A stretch of 64,000 nt of DNA from positions 5,522 to 69,521 of the forward strand of contig CAZHYZ010000001.1 of NCBI GenBank assembly GCA_964537195.1, read 5' to 3'. The notes under the pieces were generated by a model, which had not been told where the DNA came from, made no database searches, and worked only from the letters and a program-made list of their open reading frames with translations. Shown in pieces: positions 31,266-61,245 of the stretch. The first letter of the stretch is position 1; each line of letters begins with the position of its first letter. Made by a program: the position numbers and the translations under genes. Source of the DNA: an uncultured Methanosarcinales archaeon (lineage in GTDB: Archaea; Nanobdellota; Nanobdellia; Woesearchaeales; GW2011-AR15).

Positions 31266-31667
31266 TTAAAAAGGTTTTGTTGCTTCTGGAACAGATTCAA
31301 AGAGGCTCATTAAACCACGTTTTAATGATTTCTCATCAGAAATTTTTGCGTGAAGATGAGGTATAAGAGACCAGTGTGTGTTTTCTTCAGGATTGACAAA
31401 CATTATTTTTAATTTTGGATTTTTAATTAAAGAGTCCCATTCTTCAATTATGTGATTTAGATTTTCTTTAATATTTAGACAGACGATTACTATGCTTCCT
31501 TCTTTTTCTATGTCTTTAGATAAAACAGGAATGACGAAGTAATCTGTTTTCCCCCCATTTTTTAAAAAACATACAATCTTTTCTTTTTCATCTTTTCTTT
31601 CTTTTATGTTTTTCTTAAAATTATTCACATGATTAAGATATATAGAAGTCCATTGATTTAAGTTCAT
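31266..31667 (-). CDS. Conserved hypothetical protein
   Basis: 133-aa ORF overlapping its downstream neighbour by 4 nt (operon context). Confidence 0.35.
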   Translation of the reverse strand: MNLNQWTSIYLNHVNNFKKNIKERKDEKEKIVCFLKNGGKTDYFVIPVLSKDIEKEGSIVIVCLNIKENLNHIIEEWDSLIKNPKLKIMFVNPEENTHWSLIPHLHAKISDEKSLKRGLMSLFESVPEATKPF

Positions 31668-32179
31668 TTTTCTAGAGAAAAAAACTCTTTTCTTTCTTTT
31701 ATTTTGAATATTAGGTGTGGTGCAGCGAAACTAATAAGGTATATAATAGCAACAAACAAAGGGTTTGCTTTTAATGACAAACCCACTTTTATTGCCATTG
31801 ATTTTGCAACACCAATAACCACAAAAACAGTAATTGTAGCAATAACAGGGATTAATATCCCTGCAATAACATAATGTTTTATACTAATCTCATCTAGTTC
31901 TCTTATTATAACATCTATTAACATTCCAAAGCAAACCCCAATTGTGGCTACAAATAGAAAAACAAAAATCTGTGGCATTTCAATCATTAATGGGGTGATG
32001 CCTGCAAGAATGAACATATTCCCTGTTATGGCAACGAAAAGAGCTGTCCAATAAACAAACTTATCTAATCTTTTGTGTTTTGCTTTTTTAATTATATGTA
32101 GTGTTTTTGCTATGTGGTGATTATCCCATTCTTTTTTTCCTAATCTGTGTGCTAGCTTGTTGTGGTCTGTTGTAATCAT
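31664..32179 (-). CDS. Integral membrane protein (4 TM)
   Basis: 171 aa, four hydrophobic helices, start overlaps the MinD-like gene by 4 nt. Confidence 0.4.
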   Translation of the reverse strand: MITTDHNKLAHRLGKKEWDNHHIAKTLHIIKKAKHKRLDKFVYWTALFVAITGNMFILAGITPLMIEMPQIFVFLFVATIGVCFGMLIDVIIRELDEISIKHYVIAGILIPVIATITVFVVIGVAKSMAIKVGLSLKANPLFVAIIYLISFAAPHLIFKIKERKEFFSLEK

Positions 32180-46440: not shown

Positions 46441-47808
46441 TTATATTCTCTCTTTAAAATCGCAACTTCCTGAGAGTGGTTTATTGGGGTTGTTCATCTT
46501 ATCAATTAATTTACTTTTTAGTCTTTTTACAACCTCTTCTCTTTCAAAAAATAGGTTGTTTTTTTCTTCAGAATCATTTTCCAGATCAAACAATTCACTC
46601 TTATCATCTATTATAAAGCATTTTGATGATACACGTTCAATATCCGCAATATACTTCCAGTTGTCTTCTATTAATGCAATCTTCTCACCATATAATTCAC
46701 TAATAATTACTTTATTTTTATTTTCAATATGGTTTTCCCCCCCTAACATCATTTCTTTAAGAGAGGTTCCTTGAATATACTTGGGAGATTCTAACCCTAT
46801 CAAATCTAATGTTGTTGGTAATATGTCCAGAGAACTTACCCTTATTTTTACTCTCCTTTTTTGACCCTTTGGAACATAGATTATTAATGGAACCTTTATT
46901 ACTTCATCATATAATGTAATCCCGTGTCCTATGCGTTTGTGTTCATAGAATTCTTGTCCGTGGTCACCAGTTAGTATTATTATTGTGTTGTCTAAAATTC
47001 CTTTTTCTTGTAACTTATCAATAAACATCCCAAACTTCTTATCCATTTCATATAGTTCTGCATCATATAATGTTTTAAAATATTCCATGTTTTCTTTATT
47101 CATATCAAGAAACCCAAACTTTCCAGCTAAATAATTACTCTCTTTTGTTAGATTTTTATCGAACAATTCAATGGTTTCTGGTTGTGGAGAATATGGAGAA
47201 TGAAGTTTGTAAGAGTGGAGAAACATAAAAAACTTTTCTGAGTTGTTGTAATTATCTATTAGGTAAAAAGCATTTTTCCAGTAGTTTTCTTCTTTTTCAT
47301 AAGATTTTTCATAACTCTGAGAAGAGTTGCTGTATGAACTGTAAAATTCATCAAAACCCCTTTCAAAACCCCTTTCAAGATTTAAAAATTCGAGCCAGAG
47401 CGGCGCCACCCAAATATTTTTGTAGTCTTTTTCTTTTAACAACTCAGGTAGAGTATAGATTTCATTTGATAAAGTTGAATCTTGGCTGACATTGTACAAT
47501 TTGTGATAAGAAGGCACAACAGAAGTGAAGATAGACATCTGACTTGGCAAAGTCCAGGAGGATGTTGAATATACATCTTCAAATAAAGTGGATTTCTCAG
47601 CAAATTTGTCAATATTTGGTGTTGTGTTTCTAGGATATCCATAGGTGCCAAGGTGGTCGGATCTCAATGTAGTAATAGATATTAGGATTATATTACAATC
47701 TTTACAGTCTGTTTCGTTTTGTATTTCTGATAATGAATAGAGAATTCCTAAAGCAATTAGACTAGCAAAAATAAAAAAAACAACAAACTTTTTCTTTTTA
47801 TCTAGCAT
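46441..47808 (-). CDS. Sulfatase-like hydrolase/transferase (alkaline phosphatase superfamily)
   Basis: Signal-anchor; ILISITTLRSDHLGTYGY N-terminal metal-binding motif and the TGDHG motif typical of sulfatases/LTA-synthase-like enzymes. Confidence 0.7.
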   Translation of the reverse strand: MLDKKKKFVVFFIFASLIALGILYSLSEIQNETDCKDCNIILISITTLRSDHLGTYGYPRNTTPNIDKFAEKSTLFEDVYSTSSWTLPSQMSIFTSVVPSYHKLYNVSQDSTLSNEIYTLPELLKEKDYKNIWVAPLWLEFLNLERGFERGFDEFYSSYSNSSQSYEKSYEKEENYWKNAFYLIDNYNNSEKFFMFLHSYKLHSPYSPQPETIELFDKNLTKESNYLAGKFGFLDMNKENMEYFKTLYDAELYEMDKKFGMFIDKLQEKGILDNTIIILTGDHGQEFYEHKRIGHGITLYDEVIKVPLIIYVPKGQKRRVKIRVSSLDILPTTLDLIGLESPKYIQGTSLKEMMLGGENHIENKNKVIISELYGEKIALIEDNWKYIADIERVSSKCFIIDDKSELFDLENDSEEKNNLFFEREEVVKRLKSKLIDKMNNPNKPLSGSCDFKERI

Positions 47809-47812
47809 TTTT

Positions 47813-48415
47813 CTAGTAAATACAAACAGTTTCCAACATTATTGATTCATAATCTTTTATTTCTTCCTTAAGAGGAAGAAACATTTCAATAACATATATT
47901 GAATTGTCACATTGTTTATAGTATAAAATACTTCTGAATTCTATTAAATCCCAGGAACATGCACCATATGTGTATCTGTTTGTTGCATACAATAAAAAAT
48001 AATTGAATGGTAAATTCAATTTTTCTTTAGGAAGAAAGGATTTATCACAAGATATTGTTTGTGAGATTCTTCCAGGATAAGGTGAGGGCACTTCTTTGTA
48101 TAATGATAGTAAAATTTTTCTTTCTTCATTTATGAAATAAATTATTTCTGTCTGATTTAGATTATTTATTCTTTTAATCCTTATTGTGGTGTTTTTCCCT
48201 TTTCCTGTGAAAAGATCATAGTTTTGATGATTGATGAATTCAAAATCTATCTCTTTTATTATTTCATTCTCTATACCAAGGCTTCTTTGATTTGGAAATA
48301 ATTTAATTATTATAACAAAAAAAATAGAAAGAAAAAGAACCAAACAAAAAAATTTGTAGAGCGATATTTTATTTTTTCCCATATTATTTAAATATTTCTC
48401 TGAGGATTTTACCAT
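47813..48415 (-). CDS. Small signal-anchored protein, paralogue of 50442-50972 (partner protein A)
   Basis: Shares PSPYPGRIS, YGACSWDL and SILYY motifs with the 50442-50972 protein; lies immediately downstream of the PDE gene with an overlap. Confidence 0.4.
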   Translation of the reverse strand: MVKSSEKYLNNMGKNKISLYKFFCLVLFLSIFFVIIIKLFPNQRSLGIENEIIKEIDFEFINHQNYDLFTGKGKNTTIRIKRINNLNQTEIIYFINEERKILLSLYKEVPSPYPGRISQTISCDKSFLPKEKLNLPFNYFLLYATNRYTYGACSWDLIEFRSILYYKQCDNSIYVIEMFLPLKEEIKDYESIMLETVCIY

Positions 48416-50399
48416 CTACATCATTTGGACTTTCAATATTTAGCAAGTGTAGAATGGTTGGATATTGATCTACATGTTCAATTGGTTTACTCAATTCATA
48501 ACCTTCTTTTATTCCCGACCCTGCTATGATGAAAGGGGACCACATTCCTTTTGTTTCATTTGCAAAGATAGCCTGTTTGTAACCGGTTTTTAATGGTGTG
48601 TCAAATATTTTCCTGTCTTCTGTCATTTCCTCATTCCAACCATAGCCTGCCTCGTTTGCAATAATCAAATCTCCGACACGATCTTTTGGCAAATCAAGAT
48701 ATTCACTTACGTCTTCCCATTTTACAACTGCCCTGACAGGATTCTCGCCGGTTTCTGGATCTTCAATATCCCTTAAGCTGTTTATCACTTCTTGTCTGAG
48801 TTTCTCATATTCTTCTCCAGATGCTCTTGTCCAGTTTCCATCCAATCCCTCTGGATCAATATAGATGTTGTCCATTTTTAGATATATTACTTGGCTATTT
48901 TTCCAGTCAATTATTGGTTCTCCTGTTGTTGGATCAATTTCAAAATCTAACCATCCTTTCTCAGCAAAAAAATTGTTTAATCTCACCCATTTATTTAGTG
49001 GAACTGCTCCATGATCAGAACTGAAAACGATAATTGTGTTCTCATCAGAAACTTTGAGAATTTCTCCAACCATCTTGTCTAACTCTTTATACATATCTTT
49101 TACTTCTTTCCAGAGTTCTTCCCTTGTTTGATTATCTACTTCATTGTATCTCTTGCTAACAGGATCAATATATCCAAGCCACCACCTGCTTGTTAGCATT
49201 TGGTTTGGTGAATATATGTCATGTATTATTACATCAGGATTGTAGGTTTCATCTACAAAAGAAATTTCCTTGGTGTGCCAATCAAAAGACATGTTCATTT
49301 CTTCTAGAAACGTTTTCTTGTCCTCCGGATAATATATTAATTGTGGCGGGAAATTATCTACAAAATCAACCATAGGCCCCAGGTTCTCATTAAACTCAGT
49401 TCTAACAGAAGAAGGTTTCACATTATATTCATTTAGGTTGTTGTAGAAGAGTCTTATTCTAAAAAAGCCATCATCTTCCAATTTGATTATGTTTATTATT
49501 ACGTGTGTGTCTACATCAAGTGAGTTCCAATTAAGAACCAAGGGATTCCATTCACTCCACTCTCCCTGTTCTAAAACGGCCCATTTGTTTCTTTTATCAG
49601 GAGAGAATAAGATTTTATTGTAATTCTCAGACTCATCATTTGTACTGTCATATACATATCCATAAATTTTTTCTCCCCAACCAGAAAGTTCTATCTCAAA
49701 AGGTGGAGAATACGACTTTGGATTCAAAGTCCAATTTTTTGGCTCATTAGTTTTAATATATCTTGTGAGCTCAGGACCAAAAAAGAACAACCTAGAACCT
49801 CGTCCCTGTTTTTTTCTCTGGCTTAAATTCGATTCATATTCAAAGTTAATAGCATGAAAATCTGCCCCCCAACCACCCCATCTTCCTCTGATTGTCATTC
49901 CTTTGTCTAACTCAGGGGGCGTAGATCCGGGCATTGATAATAAAGCAACATTTAAATCATTTTTTTCTAGAGTTGTCCATATTGGTTCATTTTTCTTTGC
50001 TACAGAAGAAAATCCTGCTACTGAAACTTTATTTAATGGTGCACCTTCAACGTGCATGGGCCCATCTGCTACCCCATGTTTTTCAGGATATGTGCCTGTT
50101 AATAGTGTAGCGAAGTTTGTTGGAGTGTGGCTTGGAAAAGTCGGAATAGAATAACCATATGATCCTTTTTCCATTAATTTTTTTATATTAGGTAATTCCC
50201 CGGCCTCGGCCCACTCGAACAACTTAAATAAATCCGGATCTGCCCTCACACCATCCGGAATGAACCAGTATAGTTTTAATGATTTATCTTTTTCAATTTT
50301 TTTTTCTGAGTTTATAGTGCAAGAAACACCAAATATTAAAATAAAAATGAGAGACACAAAAATAACATTTTTTTTATTCAATTTATACACCCCAATCAA
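48384..50399 (-). CDS. Type I phosphodiesterase / nucleotide pyrophosphatase family (alkaline phosphatase superfamily), secreted
   Basis: Signal-anchor; PTFPSHTPTNFATLLTGTYPEKHG matches the Phosphodiest family metal/nucleophile motif; 671 aa. Confidence 0.65.
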   Translation of the reverse strand: MIGVYKLNKKNVIFVSLIFILIFGVSCTINSEKKIEKDKSLKLYWFIPDGVRADPDLFKLFEWAEAGELPNIKKLMEKGSYGYSIPTFPSHTPTNFATLLTGTYPEKHGVADGPMHVEGAPLNKVSVAGFSSVAKKNEPIWTTLEKNDLNVALLSMPGSTPPELDKGMTIRGRWGGWGADFHAINFEYESNLSQRKKQGRGSRLFFFGPELTRYIKTNEPKNWTLNPKSYSPPFEIELSGWGEKIYGYVYDSTNDESENYNKILFSPDKRNKWAVLEQGEWSEWNPLVLNWNSLDVDTHVIINIIKLEDDGFFRIRLFYNNLNEYNVKPSSVRTEFNENLGPMVDFVDNFPPQLIYYPEDKKTFLEEMNMSFDWHTKEISFVDETYNPDVIIHDIYSPNQMLTSRWWLGYIDPVSKRYNEVDNQTREELWKEVKDMYKELDKMVGEILKVSDENTIIVFSSDHGAVPLNKWVRLNNFFAEKGWLDFEIDPTTGEPIIDWKNSQVIYLKMDNIYIDPEGLDGNWTRASGEEYEKLRQEVINSLRDIEDPETGENPVRAVVKWEDVSEYLDLPKDRVGDLIIANEAGYGWNEEMTEDRKIFDTPLKTGYKQAIFANETKGMWSPFIIAGSGIKEGYELSKPIEHVDQYPTILHLLNIESPNDVDGKILREIFK

Positions 50400-50441
50400 A
50401 GGAAAGAAACACTTTATTTAAATTATTATCTTTCTTTTTCT

Positions 50442-50972
50442 CTATGAAACAAACTTACATCCTAGATTTTCTAGATATCTAAATTTTTCTGTGGTATTTT
50501 CTTTTAATGCAAAAAAATATTTCATTTCAATCAAATCTTCTCCGCATTTATGATAATATAGTATTGAACTGTAATTTATCAAATCCCAAGAGCAAGCCCC
50601 ATAGGTGAATCTTTCAGTCGCGTAGACAACATAGTAGTTTGAAATGTTGTTCTTTAAAGGTTTAAATTCTTTTCTACATTCTCTTAGATTGGAAATTCTT
50701 CCCGGATAGGGAGAAGGGGTTGTGTCATATAATGAATATAATATTAATAGACTATCGGATATGAACTCATCTGAAAAATCGCTATAGTTATAGTAAATAT
50801 TAATATCAATTCTTTCATCATCTTTTTTGGCAACTATATGTTTTCCATCTTTTAAATCATATTCTTCTTTTGAGAACTCTTTAGGGCCAGAATCTTTCTG
50901 ACAGGAAACCAAATTGAACATTAATAGTAAAAGAACAATTATAATCATTATAGGGTATTTTTTAATATACAT
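50442..50972 (-). CDS. Small signal-anchored protein, paralogue of 47813-48415 (partner protein B)
   Basis: Conserved PSPYPGRIS...RFTYGACSWDL...SILYYHKC block; follows the Cys-rich secreted protein gene by 5 nt. Confidence 0.4.
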   Translation of the reverse strand: MYIKKYPIMIIIVLLLLMFNLVSCQKDSGPKEFSKEEYDLKDGKHIVAKKDDERIDINIYYNYSDFSDEFISDSLLILYSLYDTTPSPYPGRISNLRECRKEFKPLKNNISNYYVVYATERFTYGACSWDLINYSSILYYHKCGEDLIEMKYFFALKENTTEKFRYLENLGCKFVS

Positions 50973-50976
50973 TTTT

Positions 50977-52266
50977 TTATTTTGATTTGTTGTTTTGTGT
51001 TTTATTTAACATTTTCTCTTTACATTCTTCTGAGTACTTATCTGGTAGCTTGTCACAAACTTTTGGATCATTATAAAACTCTGACATTAAAATTTCTGTC
51101 AGTAATAAATTATAGCAAAAATTACTATGTTTGTCTTTGAAGGTTGTGCTATTTACAGATATTTCTGAACATTTTTTAACACCTTCCTCAATATCAAGCA
51201 GTAAATATTCACTTAAATAATAAATATACCCAAGTATGCACTCCTCTTTATATTTTTCCGGAAAATCCTCACAAAGCTCGTGTGTGTTCTCCATCCTGTC
51301 CTCAAACCAACCGTGCCTTGCTATTTTAATGAAACATAAGTCAGATAAATTCTTATCTTCTAGGGATTTACAATAGTTAAGATCTATCTTCATGTCTTCA
51401 TTATAGCTTAACATAATACCAAAGATTCCCTCAAAACAAAAATTACGAAACCCAGAGGTATTACACAAAGCAAAGGATTCATTTTTTTTATTTATGTAGT
51501 ATGTTCCGCCTAGTCCCCCATAACAGTCTTTTTTAAATTCTTTGTTTGTTATATTACAAAACAACTCTGTCTTGTTAGATTCTAATAGATAAACAACATG
51601 ATCATGGCATCCAAAATATTTTGAAGTGCTGCTGAGAGTACATAACTCATCAATTATTTTAAGATTAGGTTCTTTTGTTTTAGAAATCTCGTCTGCTAGA
51701 AGGAAAAAACATTCAGACCTCCAATTTTTATCCTTAATTTCAGAACAGAAGTTCTTGTAGTCTTTGATATTTGATTCAATTGAAGACTTGTTCAGACTTA
51801 GGGAGGTCATTACATAATATTGGCACTCACCAGCGAGGGCCTCATTCTCTAAATCACAAATTTCTTTTACCTTAGAAACATTTTTCTTTCCATATTTTAT
51901 TGCTTCAAGAAAGATTGTATGAATCTGATAATAATCTTCTTCCGCACTTATGTTCTTTGTTATAAATTCCACCATGTGAGGTCTATCGATTATTCTATTA
52001 CAGATCCTTTTTATGTATGGGTTCTGAATATATGAAATAGAAACTTCTGCTTCATCCAAGGGACCACTGCTTCTCAATTGAAAGATTAATTTGTCTTTGT
52101 AACACAAATCTTTTTTAAGACCATTTCTTATATCCTGACAATCAAAAGTGAAGGAATTCATTGTATTATTAATGGTGTTGTCTAGATTAGGATTATTGCA
52201 GGAGTTAATTAAAAACAGGATTAACGCCATAAATATAACTGTGGTCTTTTTATTAAGATTAATCAT
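50977..52266 (-). CDS. Secreted Cys-rich protein (hypothetical)
   Basis: Signal peptide then regularly spaced Cys pairs along its 429 aa; no family recognised. Confidence 0.4.
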   Translation of the reverse strand: MINLNKKTTVIFMALILFLINSCNNPNLDNTINNTMNSFTFDCQDIRNGLKKDLCYKDKLIFQLRSSGPLDEAEVSISYIQNPYIKRICNRIIDRPHMVEFITKNISAEEDYYQIHTIFLEAIKYGKKNVSKVKEICDLENEALAGECQYYVMTSLSLNKSSIESNIKDYKNFCSEIKDKNWRSECFFLLADEISKTKEPNLKIIDELCTLSSTSKYFGCHDHVVYLLESNKTELFCNITNKEFKKDCYGGLGGTYYINKKNESFALCNTSGFRNFCFEGIFGIMLSYNEDMKIDLNYCKSLEDKNLSDLCFIKIARHGWFEDRMENTHELCEDFPEKYKEECILGYIYYLSEYLLLDIEEGVKKCSEISVNSTTFKDKHSNFCYNLLLTEILMSEFYNDPKVCDKLPDKYSEECKEKMLNKTQNNKSK

Positions 52267-54761: not shown

Positions 54762-54799
54762 AAATCTTTTTTAAACTCTTATTTATTCTTATCTTGAGT

Positions 54800-54883
54800 G
54801 CCCTCATAGCTCAGCGGTAGAGCGACAGTCTCGTAACTAGCCAAGAAAACTGTAGGTCGGGAGTTCAACTCTCTCTGAGGGCT
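54800..54883 (+). tRNA. tRNA-Thr(CGU) with a 12-nt intron at the canonical position
   Basis: Acceptor GCCCUCA/UGAGGGC plus discriminator U; D-stem GCUC/GAGC; anticodon stem ACAGU/ACUGU, loop CUCGUAA; T-arm GGGAG-UUCAACU-CUCUC; intron ACTAGCCAAGAA at 54836-54847. Confidence 0.75.
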
Positions 54884-54888
54884 TGAAA
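54873..54888 (+). repeat. Direct repeat copy 1 (CTCTGAGGGCTTGAAA) spanning the tRNA-Thr 3' end
   Basis: A 16-nt exact match to 54956-54971. Confidence 0.6.
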
Positions 54889-54955
54889 ATGTACTCTTCT
54901 TATGAATAGTACGTTCCTTTGGTTTCTAACCTTTGAAAAGGTTAGGTTTAAATCG

Positions 54956-54971
54956 CTCTGAGGGCTTGAAA
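54956..54971 (+). repeat. Direct repeat copy 2 (CTCTGAGGGCTTGAAA): duplicated tRNA-Thr 3' end, att-like
   Basis: An exact 16-nt copy of the T-stem/acceptor/discriminator plus trailer, 83 bp downstream; abuts the ATG of the next ORF. Confidence 0.6.
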
Positions 54972-55306
54972 TGGAAAAAATACTTGTCGTATTAAGTGAT
55001 TTATTTTTCGCTGCAAAAATAAGAACCGTAGCAGCAAAGTTAAACAAAGAACTTGTAATTGTTCGGACAAAAGAAGACTTGCTTAGTGAGTTGTCTTTTG
55101 GTGATGTGGATAAAATGATTATAGATCTTAATTTCTCTAAATTTGACATATTCACTCTTTTTAATGAAATAGATACAAAAGACATTTACACTATCGGATA
55201 TTGTTTAGAGGTAAATGTTAACATAATGAGAAAAGCAGAGAACTTCTTTGATTTGGTGTTAACAAGAGAAGATTTTTCTAAGCGTCTTCCAGAATTACTG
55301 TCATAA
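54971..55306 (+). CDS. Hypothetical protein (possible receiver-like alpha/beta fold)
   Basis: 111-aa ORF, MEKILVVLSDL...; no family recognised. Confidence 0.3.
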   Translation: MEKILVVLSDLFFAAKIRTVAAKLNKELVIVRTKEDLLSELSFGDVDKMIIDLNFSKFDIFTLFNEIDTKDIYTIGYCLEVNVNIMRKAENFFDLVLTREDFSKRLPELLS

Positions 55307-57171: not shown

Positions 57172-60100
57172 ATGAAATCCACAAAAAAATCTCAGATATC
57201 TTTATTTCTTATAGTGGGCTTGGTTTTGTTATTAGTTGTGTCCCTATTTGTAGTTGTAAGAATAAATATGAAGCGAGCAGATGTACAACAAGTTAAACAA
57301 GAAAGTATTACTTTTCAAAATCTTGAAGAAGATGCAGGATTGTATGTTGAAGATTGTATTGAGCAATCTGTTTTTGAGGGTATAGAGAATTATGGTCTTG
57401 ATTCACCAGGCATTCTTGAAGTATATGTAGGTGAACAGATTATGATTTGTACAGATGAGTTTAAGATATATGAGAACATAGCAGAGATATCTGAGGAAGA
57501 ACCAGTTGTCAATGTTGAGATTAATGACGATATAATTAATTTTAATATAGATTATCCAGTAATTTTTTCAAAAGGCGAAGAACAATTCAGATTAAAAAAA
57601 TTCAGCTATAGTTTTAGGACTAACACCTTAATTGATTCTGACGGCGGCATAATTGAAGAAGGCACAGTATATACAACAGAAGATGGAAGATTGAATCTTT
57701 ATTTTTCTGACGATACTACAGTAACAAAAGACGGTGATAGTGTTGATGCTATTAGTTTGAATGTTGAGGACGAACATATAAATGGATTGTCTAACGCTGT
57801 TGTGATAGGTTCTGTTTTATATGAAGGATTGCCTCATGGAGCAAAATTTAATCCTGCCATTGAGGTTACAGTTGAGCTTGATGAAGAAGACATTCAAGGT
57901 CTAGATACTTCTGCATTGAAATTAGCATATTATGATGATGATGCAGATTTGTGGATAACATATCCTAGTTACTTTGATGAAGAAAACATGGTTGTTCGTG
58001 GTAAAGTTGATCATTTCTCTTTGATATCCGTATCAATGTGTGGTTCAAGCGTGGATGGACAAGCTACAATGCAAATGAGTACAGGAGAGAAGACCTTTCC
58101 TATGGAGTTTATTTTTAAAGATCCTTTTTTAGATGGAGAAGACAACGGATGTAATCCAACCCATTGGATGTATAACTCTCTAGAGGATGACGAACACGGC
58201 AGTTATGGTTTTCATTTGTTGCCTGAATTCATGTCTTCTTTTGAATGCGAGTATGATAATTATGATATGACTACTTACTATTATGGAGAAGAATTTCCTG
58301 TGGATGTATGTGATTTAAACTCTGAACATATAAGGGACTGGGATAATGATGATGATCCTGCTTATGAATTTGGTGTTGGAGAAATTAAGATTTCTTTTTC
58401 AGGTATAGAAAACCCTCAAGAATTTACACTTTTTGCAGAAATGTCATCTGATCAAAGTAAGGAAGTTTATACCTATTTGGAAAATAAATGTGTTTCTGCT
58501 GCAAGTGCTTTTGCAAAAGAAAAGATTAAAGAAAAGTTTGACTGGGTTACAGACGACTTAATTAGTGGAGATGGAATTAGAGACGGAGCAACCCTACATT
58601 GTACAGCAGACCTTAGTGGAACAGAAGGAGACACTCTTGATTCCTTTATGGGCAGGGTTGCTATTGGAAGTATTGGAGTGCAATTTAATGAAGGAAGTAT
58701 AACAGATAATTTAGAAAATCCTGATTCTATTTGTTGGGGTGGAGGAAAATGTTCACCAGTCCAGACAATAGAAGATTATGGTGATGGAGTTCCCCTTGTT
58801 CCTGGGGCTACAAAAACCAGATTAGGTTTCTTTGCAACTCCAAAAACATTTGGGTTTGCATTTGAGCAACAAGAGCCATTTCAAGTGCTAACTACTTATG
58901 AAGATATTGGAGCAATAAAAGATGATGTTGACCAAACTTTTCATCCTTTGCTTGGAGAAGGAGAATTCACTTTTTATCTGAGAACTGGAGGAGATGCATG
59001 TGTTAGTTATGAACCTAGTGGATTAGGTTGTTGTGTTAACTCACAACAAGTTGGAGATGAAACAGTCATAACTGACTGCCAAGGAAAGCCCGATGAGAAT
59101 GGGTGTCGGGGGGAATTTTTTGATAAAGATTGTCATGAATTGTCTCAGTGTATAGGGAAAACAAATGATTTAGAAGCATTTCTCATACAAGAAGAAGTAG
59201 AAGTTGAGAATTATATTCTTAAAAGTACACCTTCTAACATAATAACTATTGCTTCTCAGGCAGGTTCAACCCCCATTAAAAACACTATTGCTACAGATCT
59301 TCAAAAAACACAAGGAGAAACAGATTTAAGTGTGGCAAATGATGATGAGTACCTTCCTTTAGTTTATGACATGTCCAAAATTGAGGGAAGAGACTGGTCT
59401 TGTTCTGATACTTGTTTATGGACAATAAATGAAGAACCTGGAAAAATATTGAGCGAGACAACTCAGCAAAAAACAAAATCAACACCTGCCTCTCCGGGTA
59501 AATTGAGATCAGGAACAAACACAGTTAAAGTCAGGGTAGCAAACTTAAATGATGTTTGTATGTATGCTCGGGCATTTCTACAATTAAAAGGACAAGGAGT
59601 TACTTTCTTTGATATCTCTGAAGATGTTGATAGACCACTAACAGAAGATGATTGTAAGGCTGTTGATAGTTGTTGGGTAAGTAGACCAAACATAGAAAAC
59701 GGCGGATTTTGTGTAGTTAAGGGAGAGAATAACGGAGGTTATTGTTGTTTTGGTGCAGAAGAGGGCAATTATATGTACCCATATCCACACTTTGAATATT
59801 TTGGTGACCAAGAATGTAAAGCAAATGAAAACGCACGACCAATGGATGAGTTGAGCTGTACCACCCAGGGTGGAAAATGGACAAATGGTTTTTGTGTTAG
59901 AGCCGGAGAATACAATGCAGAATATTGTGTTGTTGGTCCTACAGAAGAGAAGAATTATGTACATTATGAACTTGCAGAGGAAAATATCTGTCCTTGTGAA
60001 GATGGAAGAGAATGTCTTGTTGCCAGTGAGTGTGAGGTTGTGGATGAATATCATTCTGTGAGATGTTCTCAGACAGAGCAAGGAGAGAGAATGTATTGTT

Positions 60101-61245
60101 GTGATAGAAAAGAACCTGAGGAAGAAGTTATTGAAGAAGAACCCGTAGGACAACTAAGTTGTTCAAGTGGTGGAAATGCAATTATAGATGATAACGGAAA
60201 AAGGTTCTCTTACTGTACTTATGGTTGTAATCCAGGTCAAGATGAATGTAAAGATGATTTGATGAGTTGTCAAAATTCTGTTTGTTATTCTGATTGTTCT
60301 ACTAACTGTGATTCACAAGCAGACGATTATACAGATTGTTTGTTCACATGTCAAGAAAATTGTCCAGAATGTTATTCTGAGATTGACTGTGAGAAATTCC
60401 CCAATTATGAAACCACAGAATGGAAATGTGAAGGTAGCCGAGTAGTTCCACAGACATGTGGGGATGGCAATCTTGATCCTAATGAAGAGTGTGATGACGG
60501 CAACAATGATGATGGAGACGGGTGTAATGCAGAATGTATATTAGAATATTGTGGAGACGGCCTTATTAACAATGTTGATGAAGAATGTGATGATGGTGAT
60601 ACTGTTGGTTTAAACGGTTGCTCAGATACTTGCCAAATAGAAGACGGTTGGACATGTGATGAAGAGCCGTCTGTTTGTGTTAAGGAAGAGGTGACTATTT
60701 CAGATGTTCAGAGAGATAAACTTGAAAAGGAATTTCCTGGAACACGCATTGGAAATGCACAAGTCTTATCACAAATGATAACTACTTGTTATGAGTTATA
60801 TTATAGCCAACTTAAATCTGATTTATATGAATGTTTAGATAATTATGCTCCAAATATTGGACAAATTAACCAATTATCTTCAGATGCTTGGCCTTATACT
60901 TTTACTACTTGTGCAGTCTCTGAACCATATTTACAATGTCTCTGTTATGTAAATGCCTTTGGTGTTGCATCAGGCTACGAGGTATCTACAGCTTATGGTC
61001 TTGTTGGAGTAGACAGTAATTTAGAAGAATATACTGGCGAAAGTCAATTAGCAACAGGAAAATATGTTATATTTGGTGATAGTGCTCCAGGCCACATAGC
61101 ATATATTGTTGGTCAAGATAGTGAAGGAGACTATCTTTATACAGATGCCAACTCAAATGATGTTGGTGGAGTAGTTTATGGTGGAAAACTGAAGAATCAT
61201 CCAAGAGGTCAAATAACATATATAAGCAAAGTACCAAGAACTTAA
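57172..61245 (+). CDS. Giant secreted/membrane-anchored Cys-rich protein with DUF4215-like Cys repeats and a C-terminal CHAP-like amidase/peptidase domain
   Basis: N-terminal signal-anchor; 1357 aa and acidic; CGDGNLDPNEECDDGNNDDGDGCNAEC and CGDGLINNVDEECDDGDTVGLNGCSDTC repeats; the C-terminal QCLCYVNAFG (Cys) and GDSAPGHIAYIVGQDSEGDYLYTDANSN (His) match the CHAP pattern. Confidence 0.7.
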   Translation: MKSTKKSQISLFLIVGLVLLLVVSLFVVVRINMKRADVQQVKQESITFQNLEEDAGLYVEDCIEQSVFEGIENYGLDSPGILEVYVGEQIMICTDEFKIYENIAEISEEEPVVNVEINDDIINFNIDYPVIFSKGEEQFRLKKFSYSFRTNTLIDSDGGIIEEGTVYTTEDGRLNLYFSDDTTVTKDGDSVDAISLNVEDEHINGLSNAVVIGSVLYEGLPHGAKFNPAIEVTVELDEEDIQGLDTSALKLAYYDDDADLWITYPSYFDEENMVVRGKVDHFSLISVSMCGSSVDGQATMQMSTGEKTFPMEFIFKDPFLDGEDNGCNPTHWMYNSLEDDEHGSYGFHLLPEFMSSFECEYDNYDMTTYYYGEEFPVDVCDLNSEHIRDWDNDDDPAYEFGVGEIKISFSGIENPQEFTLFAEMSSDQSKEVYTYLENKCVSAASAFAKEKIKEKFDWVTDDLISGDGIRDGATLHCTADLSGTEGDTLDSFMGRVAIGSIGVQFNEGSITDNLENPDSICWGGGKCSPVQTIEDYGDGVPLVPGATKTRLGFFATPKTFGFAFEQQEPFQVLTTYEDIGAIKDDVDQTFHPLLGEGEFTFYLRTGGDACVSYEPSGLGCCVNSQQVGDETVITDCQGKPDENGCRGEFFDKDCHELSQCIGKTNDLEAFLIQEEVEVENYILKSTPSNIITIASQAGSTPIKNTIATDLQKTQGETDLSVANDDEYLPLVYDMSKIEGRDWSCSDTCLWTINEEPGKILSETTQQKTKSTPASPGKLRSGTNTVKVRVANLNDVCMYARAFLQLKGQGVTFFDISEDVDRPLTEDDCKAVDSCWVSRPNIENGGFCVVKGENNGGYCCFGAEEGNYMYPYPHFEYFGDQECKANENARPMDELSCTTQGGKWTNGFCVRAGEYNAEYCVVGPTEEKNYVHYELAEENICPCEDGRECLVASECEVVDEYHSVRCSQTEQGERMYCCDRKEPEEEVIEEEPVGQLSCSSGGNAIIDDNGKRFSYCTYGCNPGQDECKDDLMSCQNSVCYSDCSTNCDSQADDYTDCLFTCQENCPECYSEIDCEKFPNYETTEWKCEGSRVVPQTCGDGNLDPNEECDDGNNDDGDGCNAECILEYCGDGLINNVDEECDDGDTVGLNGCSDTCQIEDGWTCDEEPSVCVKEEVTISDVQRDKLEKEFPGTRIGNAQVLSQMITTCYELYYSQLKSDLYECLDNYAPNIGQINQLSSDAWPYTFTTCAVSEPYLQCLCYVNAFGVASGYEVSTAYGLVGVDSNLEEYTGESQLATGKYVIFGDSAPGHIAYIVGQDSEGDYLYTDANSNDVGGVVYGGKLKNHPRGQITYISKVPRT

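Follow-up and report, generated by a model that had tools for sequence, protein, structure and literature searches.

Direct repeats of transfer RNA (tRNA) gene ends that derive from integrated elements are well documented in archaea (PMC3293823, PMC9897764), and in usual practice such repeats are taken as the borders of integrated viruses or plasmids. The documented archaeal tRNA-fragment repeats enclose 1.8-23 kb of DNA with a recombinase (PMC3293823, PMC9897764), and a tRNA-Thr gene with a 5' fragment repeat has been documented in Caldiarchaeum (PMC3293823). Casposons have 3'-distal tRNA gene targets and show target-site duplications of 14 bp in Methanosarcina mazei and of up to 35 bp elsewhere (PMC4779613). 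The 64-kb stretch of DNA analysed here (contig CAZHYZ010000001.1 of assembly GCA_964537195.1, hereafter the window) comes from a Woesearchaeota-type DPANN archaeon and contains, at its tRNA-Thr(CGU) gene, this kind of border signature without an element: the tRNA 3' end is followed by a short non-coding spacer and an exact 16-bp copy of itself. We describe this feature as an insertion-duplication footprint, assigned to no known element family. Comparable inserts of about 68 bp with duplications of 16-23 bp recur at gene ends in related genomes, and this recurrence is the part of the observation worth pursuing.

The 16-mer CTCTGAGGGCTTGAAA is present exactly twice in the window (Table 1); a third copy was not found on either strand of the 64 kb with up to two mismatches allowed, and none of 100 dinucleotide-preserving shuffles reproduced two matches. 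Copy 1 consists of three of the five nucleotides (nt) of the T-stem 3' strand (54873-54875), the acceptor 3' strand (54876-54882), the discriminator U (54883) and five trailer nt (54884-54888), and copy 2 shares its final A with the ATG that opens the next open reading frame (ORF). Leftward of the 16-mer an ungapped match extends for a further 10 nt with three mismatches (23 of 26 positions, GTTCAACTCT vs GTTTAAATCG), an extension of marginal significance (anchored-extension p = 0.05). The spacer between the copies is predicted to fold into two hairpins (54889-54914 and 54921-54954, the second with a 9-bp core stem at 54926-54945) with a minimum free energy of -17.7 kcal/mol (z = -4.0 on the plus strand, equalled by none of 200 shuffles; z = -4.2 on the minus strand). 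Its GC content of 0.33 is the same as the genome's own, and the window as a whole has about 32% G+C throughout, with a flat composition across the tRNA locus. Neither the window nor any of the fetched loci contains a further copy of the spacer, and Rfam yielded no match; permissive thresholds, applied to this spacer and to that of the related locus L029, returned only chance-level matches. Two Logan contigs of SRR7048221 enter the structure from either side, one (L026) spanning the tRNA gene and copy 1 as far as position 54940 and the other (L001) beginning at 54919, spanning copy 2 and entering the ORF. An earlier note on this DNA had reported the duplicated tRNA 3' end, the 12-nt tRNA intron, the two spacer hairpins and the abutment of copy 2 on the ATG, all of which are borne out by these analyses, and within the 64 kb the 16-mer is not a generic motif.

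Table 1. Features of the tRNA-Thr(CGU) locus (window positions) and the five cases of terminal duplication in the window and related loci.
Feature	Position	Strand	Basis or details
TATA-like box TTTTTTAAA of the tRNA gene	54767-54775	+	25-33 nt 5' of tRNA position 1
tRNA-Thr(CGU) gene	54800-54883	+	Rfam RF00005 and ARAGORN; anticodon 54832-54834
Intron, 12 nt, canonical position 3' of the anticodon	54836-54847	+	ARAGORN i(37,12); boundary ambiguous by 1 nt owing to a run of A
Repeat copy 1	54873-54888	+	direct sequence reading and repeat search
Spacer with two hairpins	54889-54955	+	67 nt, unique in the window
TATA-like TTTAAAT	54947-54953	+	24 nt 5' of the ATG of the 111-aa gene
Repeat copy 2	54956-54971	+	direct sequence reading and repeat search
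111-aa gene, predicted stand-alone CheY-like receiver fold	54971-55306	+	AlphaFold2 and Foldseek
Duplication, window			block 16 nt, exact; period +83; spacer 67 nt; tRNA 3' end
Duplication, L032			block 18 nt, exact; period +85; spacer 67 nt; tRNA 3' end
Duplication, L029			block 23 nt, one mismatch; period +91; spacer 68 nt; tRNA 3' end
Duplication, L022			block 19 nt, exact; period -89; spacer 70 nt; tRNA 5' end
Duplication, L005	L005:150-257		block 20 nt, exact; period 88; spacer 68 nt; rtcB 3' end

The orthologous tRNA-Thr(CGU) gene lies at the same syntenic position in the loci L014, L018, L020, L022, L027, L029, L032 and L033. Nine independent syntenic loci were scanned for 18-mers taken from the two tRNA ends, with no more than three substitutions tolerated, over 1500 nt on each side and on both strands. 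The scan returned exactly four matches (the window, L032, L029 and L022), with L014, L018, L020, L027 and L033 presenting an empty site that lacks a terminal duplicate. The second copies agree with the acceptor sequence of their own genome (TGAGGGC, CAGGGGC or CAAGGGC). Four other tRNA genes in the fetched loci carry no terminal duplicates, a sample too small to mean much. A fifth case emerged from a general repeat scan of about 236 kb of non-redundant DNA, comprising the window and the fetched loci: in L005 the duplicated block consists of the last five codons of rtcB, its stop codon and four more bases, and lies in a tight 3'-3' intergenic region. The same 236 kb contain nine exact direct repeats of at least 16 nt with periods of 30-300, eight of which have a period of 83-101. 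Block lengths in the five cases are near one another but not fixed, with borders uncertain by 1-2 nt, and the spacer length in the window agrees with the size rule of the independently assembled cases. JGI, Logan and ENA assemblies all give the same structure for L029, as do an NCBI metagenome-assembled genome (MAG) and a Logan contig for L022; because these assemblies agree, the two structures are not assembler artefacts.

Two further observations concern these loci. In L022 (3748-3855) the first 18 nt of the tRNA-Thr gene and one leader base are duplicated 89 nt upstream, and since the TATA box precedes this partial copy, the real tRNA would have an 89-nt leader; the partial copy could form a 5-bp acceptor-like stem with AGGGCU 37 nt onward. 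Furthermore, L008 (3798-3918) and L002 (3787-3934) each contain two tandem copies of a hairpin (GCCTTCAC-N25-GTGAAGGC, loop GATTGGGGGTGGTTT) with periods of 90 and 99-101. These hairpins overlap the 3' end of a 308-aa ORF beside a convergent ftsZ-like gene, are conserved between both genomes, and may represent an unannotated small RNA or terminator element.

The duplicated blocks are sharply bounded, as anchored extension in either direction is not significant (combined p = 0.17). When one period is subtracted, the gap between the tRNA and the next gene amounts to 54 nt in L029 and 79 nt in L032, vs 52-90 nt in six repeat-free loci, and the upstream gap of L022 amounts to 36 nt, vs 32-43 nt in its relatives. 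The exception to the latter range is L014, whose upstream gap of 97 nt may include an insertion of its own. The spacers of L029, L032 and L022 have a GC content of 0.46-0.51, vs 0.32-0.40 for the whole loci, and the rest of each intergenic region is very AT-rich. Because removal of one period restores normal gaps and the spacers are GC-rich, the unit of spacer plus one block looks inserted, and a block copied within native DNA fits less well. We therefore favour, with a probability of roughly 0.55, a recurrent insertion of about 68 bp accompanied by a 16-23 bp target or attachment site (att)-type duplication at gene termini in Woesearchaeota-type archaea, and infer that the feature originated by insertion with target duplication.

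Under this explanation, the insertion in the window would comprise 83 bp at the tRNA 3' end, namely a 67-bp unrelated, hairpin-rich spacer and one copy of the tRNA terminus. The 16 bp of target that would have been duplicated include the end of the T-stem, the acceptor 3' strand, the discriminator and the five trailer nt, and this duplication would therefore have kept the tRNA gene intact and left the second copy downstream. Such a border signature, a sharp-edged duplication around DNA unrelated to its surroundings, is the product to be expected of site-specific recombination between att sites or of transposition-type staggered cutting, which leaves a target-site duplication, and an allele produced by precise deletion would join the tRNA directly to TGGAAAAAATAC. 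More tentatively, and with considerable doubt, the cases could reflect an undescribed DNA-insertion process in Woesearchaeota-type DPANN archaea in which heterogeneous pieces of fixed length (about 67-70 bp) are inserted, 16-23 bp of target are duplicated and the surviving events lie at gene ends. Events at gene ends (tRNA 3' end, tRNA 5' end and rtcB 3' end) would survive because the long duplication keeps the gene intact. The unit would be a single repeat-spacer-repeat made from host sequence, as an off-target or stand-alone casposase/Cas1-like or other ruler-type integrase would yield. If real, the process would be a new way for small insertions to arise in highly compact archaeal genomes, could supply promoters, leaders, trailers and possibly non-canonical introns or intron-like inserts to tRNA genes and their neighbours, and would call for caution with island-finding software keyed on tRNA-end repeats.

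Several observations weigh against recurrent insertion. No significant similarity links the spacers with one another, with the tRNA of their own locus or with their upstream and downstream flanks, and they are thus not copies of one recognisable mobile element; significant terminal inverted repeats were not found in the four spacers examined for them, those of the window, L032, L029 and L022. No integrase, transposase or Cas1 was identified by Pfam among 45 of the 47 window ORFs called at a length of at least 195 aa, and a free element carrying the junction was not found in viral, phage or plasmid collections. Nor do we know of an enzyme family with a documented activity of inserting pieces of a fixed size near 68 bp and duplicating 16-23 bp. 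The five cases are a small sample, four of them coming from one deliberately sampled locus, and in the window the source contig alone shows the spacer to be continuous, the overlap of the two Logan contigs within it being only 22 nt. Finally, with one period removed, the tRNA and the ATG of the window would be just 4 nt apart, vs 52 nt with a TATA box of its own in L014, and at least one further change must therefore have occurred in the local history.

The att-site-like scar proposed in the earlier note would be the remnant of a kb-sized virus or plasmid that entered the tRNA-Thr 3' end via a tyrosine integrase, leaving attL and attR, and whose interior was later deleted down to 67 bp. The identity block indeed sits at the T-loop-class att position, beginning in the T-arm and ending a few nt beyond the tRNA, its position and length being typical of bacterial tRNA-targeting integrases, and the repeat is present in some relatives and absent from others, so that the border anatomy and the lineage specificity of that proposal stand. 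Its element does not: the ORFs searched with Pfam include no Phage_integrase, integrase fragment or other recombinase family, and only 67 non-coding bp separate the repeats. Moreover, all five cases have spacers of 67-70 bp where random internal deletions would give scattered sizes, and inserts of equal size occur at a tRNA 5' end and at the 3' end of a protein gene. Given this near-constant length, random decay of kb-sized elements does not fit, and we consider a classical integrase scar unlikely. A local repair or replication error would consist of template switching at microhomologies that placed a copy of the 16-nt block, and nothing else, about 70 nt downstream within native intergenic DNA. 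It would accord with the GC content of the window spacer and with the fact that both window copies precede (A)ATG. In addition, TTTAAAGATACTCTG of L014 corresponds to TTTAAATCGCTCTG of the window, so that CTCTG could be a pre-existing microhomology. This explanation would nevertheless imply native spacers of 122, 146 and 106 nt in L029, L032 and L022, outside the 52-90 and 32-43 nt of their relatives, the spacers of these three loci are far GC-richer than the surrounding intergenic DNA, and the constant distance is left without a reason; we give it little credence.

An equally slim chance is accorded to a functional element under selection, in which spacer and copy 2 would be transcribed as a tRNA trailer or small RNA and copy 2, co-evolving with the tRNA, might replace the usual partner of the 5' acceptor strand or serve as a decoy that binds an integrase or a tRNA-end-binding factor. 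The match of each second copy to the acceptor of its own genome would suit such a role, as would the L029 mismatch (A to G), which still pairs with U of the 5' strand, the significant structure of two spacers (z = -4.0 and -3.5), the similar spacer lengths, which could mean a length constraint, and a weak common stem predicted to pair a C-rich linker with GGG in copy 2. Yet the 3' copy is missing in six of the nine lineages, five of which lack a duplicate of either end of the tRNA, the consensus structure, at -2.2 kcal/mol, is very weak, and the spacers of L029, L022 and L005 are not significantly structured. Copy 2 furthermore lies between TATA box and ATG in the window but upstream of the TATA box in L029 and L032, and in L005 it is a protein-gene end that is duplicated, where acceptor pairing would be meaningless. 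Tandem duplication of the whole tRNA gene followed by decay of one copy save its outer end would account for periods of 83-91 nt, which are near the 84-86 nt that the gene measures with a short intron (window, L020, L027 and L033), and the upstream partial copy of L022 can form an acceptor-like stem (GCCCU/AGGGC). This origin is largely refuted and very improbable, given that the spacers lack significant tRNA similarity, the exact blocks do not extend, neither Rfam nor ARAGORN (including its pseudogene and mitochondrial modes) recovers a pseudo-tRNA, perfect blocks of 16-20 nt beside fully randomised sequence are unlike neutral decay, and rtcB, which is not a tRNA gene, shows the same period. 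Chance or an assembly artefact, for which the short overlap of the two Logan contigs inside the spacer could be cited, is scarcely credible in view of the shuffles, the contiguity of analogous structures in independent k=31 assemblies of other genomes and the fit of the window spacer to the same ruler. Recurrent insertion with target duplication hence remains the explanation that we prefer.

No C/D-box small RNA motifs were seen by eye in the spacers, and the only match to a CRISPR family of Rfam was at chance level (11.9 bits vs a gathering score of 39); with two repeat copies only and no cas genes among the window ORFs searched, the structure is not a CRISPR array. Scanning of copy 1 plus spacer as a putative second intron for a bulge-helix-bulge motif was uninformative.

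The closest syntenic relative, L014, contains the end of the Zn-ribbon ORF, the tRNA gene (with an assembly gap inside it), a 52-nt spacer, a 111-aa gene and a membrane protein gene. The spacer comprises a hairpin and TTTTTAAAG, and no second copy of the tRNA end is present. L014 has the same tRNA and 111-aa gene without the repeat, which is the kind of comparison with relatives that the earlier note had called for, and the adjacency of these two genes therefore predates the repeat. L014 also harbours, between the Zn-ribbon ORF and the tRNA promoter (122-224), a GC-rich hairpin of 68-70 nt (143-210; -26.6 kcal/mol, z = -2.05) that the window lacks. It is flanked by an AT-rich imperfect repeat of the ORF 3' end (TTATTA[GAT]AAAATAAA vs TTATTAAAAATAAA) with a period of 86-89, and this hairpin with its low-complexity repeat is a possible sixth case.

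The 111-aa gene that begins at the last base of copy 2 is known only from the window genome and L014, whose protein, 54% identical, was the single homologue found in a search of 5.8 billion proteins. The 111-aa protein itself matched no family of Pfam or PHROG above threshold. The best AlphaFold2 model, built on an alignment of two sequences, has a predicted local distance difference test score (pLDDT) of 81, with the other four models at 40-56, and Foldseek matched it to receiver domains (template modelling score 0.72-0.83, E about 1e-5), so that the protein has a predicted fold of receiver type and not that of a recombinase or excisionase. The TATA-like TTTAAAT upstream of this gene falls in the imperfect leftward extension of copy 2, opposite the tRNA T-loop, and GAGG at 54960-54963, within copy 2, lies at -11 from the ATG. 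Across the window, TATA-like hexamers peak at -26 to -33 from start codons, many genes having one in the -24 to -33 span, and motifs of the GGTGA or GGAGG type precede other genes at -9 to -13; a TATA peak at this distance is the pattern expected of leaderless or short-leader archaeal mRNAs. Judged by these spacings, copy 2 and the adjoining base pairs on its left appear to have been taken over as the core promoter and start region of the 111-aa gene.

The tRNA-Thr(CGU) gene is the sole tRNA gene identified in the window by ARAGORN and Rfam. It scores 59 bits against RF00005 (E = 3.4e-10; gathering score 29), and in intron mode (-i) ARAGORN reports tRNA-Thr(cgt) with an intron i(37,12), where the search without intron mode gives 'tRNA-???'. 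The Rfam alignment places a 14-nt insertion within the anticodon loop. A simple bulge-helix-bulge scan of rough geometry found 8 of 10 pairs for the canonical intron and did not cleanly recover it. The box TTTTTTAAA is probably the promoter of the tRNA gene, its spacing fitting the TATA-to-start distances found elsewhere in the window. Among the orthologues the canonical intron varies, being absent in L022, about 12-13 nt long in five genomes and 39-50 nt long in three; the long introns (L018, L029 and L032) fold as GC-rich hairpins, and ARAGORN assigns the respective tRNA genes wrongly (Leu, Ala) because the intron is misplaced.

Gene content around the tRNA was compared with seven further lineages, whose loci were fetched via homologues of the downstream membrane protein. 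In six of them the gene order is kept as GatE and an HNH-repeat protein (where included), DNA ligase, a 53-aa Zn-ribbon ORF, tRNA-Thr(CGU), one or two membrane-protein paralogues and an MTS-type methyltransferase, with 55-69% identity in these proteins among the lineages and the window. No ligase lies within the stretch fetched for L033, extra genes occur between the Zn-ribbon ORF and the tRNA in L018 and L029, and the seventh lineage (L024/L025) has no tRNA at the corresponding position. The upstream gene encodes a three-domain ATP-dependent DNA ligase whose best genomic relatives, at up to 54% identity, are Woesearchaeota/Nanoarchaeota MAGs; loci derived from GTDB through this ligase (L002-L011) proved too distant as comparators, having no tRNA-Thr at that position. 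Because gene order is conserved across lineages that are only 55-69% identical, the membrane paralogues and the methyltransferase are ancestral core genes, and the alternative raised in the earlier note, a degraded island with the downstream genes as its cargo, is refuted. The locus thus belongs to the core chromosome and not to a mobile island.

Searches directed at mobile elements were consistently negative. IMG/VR, which covers DPANN elements poorly, contained no matches to the tRNA 3' 21-mer, to a degenerate 25-mer or to three junctions of spacer and copy 2, and a viral scan with the membrane-protein family found nothing. The locus had no blastn match among phages and plasmids, collections in which DPANN elements are likewise poorly covered. 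In a metagenome scan, a degenerate pattern of the tRNA 3' end matched nothing but tRNA arrays of bacterial or organelle type, and a PHROG search with the neighbouring small and unassigned proteins yielded nothing.

Two lineage-specific blocks were identified near the locus. A 1357-aa ORF (57172-61245) lies between the methyltransferase and a Na+/H+ exchanger gene, which are adjacent in L020 and L032, and is therefore a lineage-specific insertion; its G+C content is slightly raised (0.35-0.37), and the CHAP label it had received earlier is not supported, since Pfam found a weak DUF4215 match only and no CHAP domain. The second block, of about 6 kb (46441-52266), contains two genes of the sulfatase/phosphodiesterase family and three ORFs without a family, and no recombinase; its flanking genes, GatE and the HNH-repeat gene, lie side by side in L020 and L022. 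Elsewhere in the window, a 17-nt purine-rich repeat (ATAAAAGAAAGAAAAGA, minus strand) with a period of 95 spans the junction of two overlapping minus-strand genes (31591-31702); it is of low complexity and may be due to chance.

Small structured non-coding inserts within a direct duplication are also a feature of elements resembling miniature inverted-repeat transposable elements (MITEs). MITEs have terminal inverted repeats, duplications of 2-10 bp and many near-identical copies per genome, and none of these traits is seen here, the genome having been searched over 64 kb only. With the attL/attR sites of SSV-type and pNOB8-type tyrosine integrases the locus shares a direct repeat of a tRNA terminus in which the proximal copy keeps the gene intact, a block that runs from inside the T-arm past the 3' end, and presence or absence among relatives. 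The known elements of this type are 1.8-23 kb long and encode an integrase, with repeats that are usually about 40-50 bp (PMC3293823, PMC9897764), in contrast to the 67 bp without an integrase found here, and the insert size is constant over five cases, one of them at the end of a protein gene. Casposons differ in being kb-sized, with terminal inverted repeats and cas1, in contrast to inserts of about 68 bp that lack inverted termini in the four spacers examined and have no Cas1 in the window; they are alike in the long target duplication around unrelated DNA, which resembles a repeat-spacer-repeat unit.

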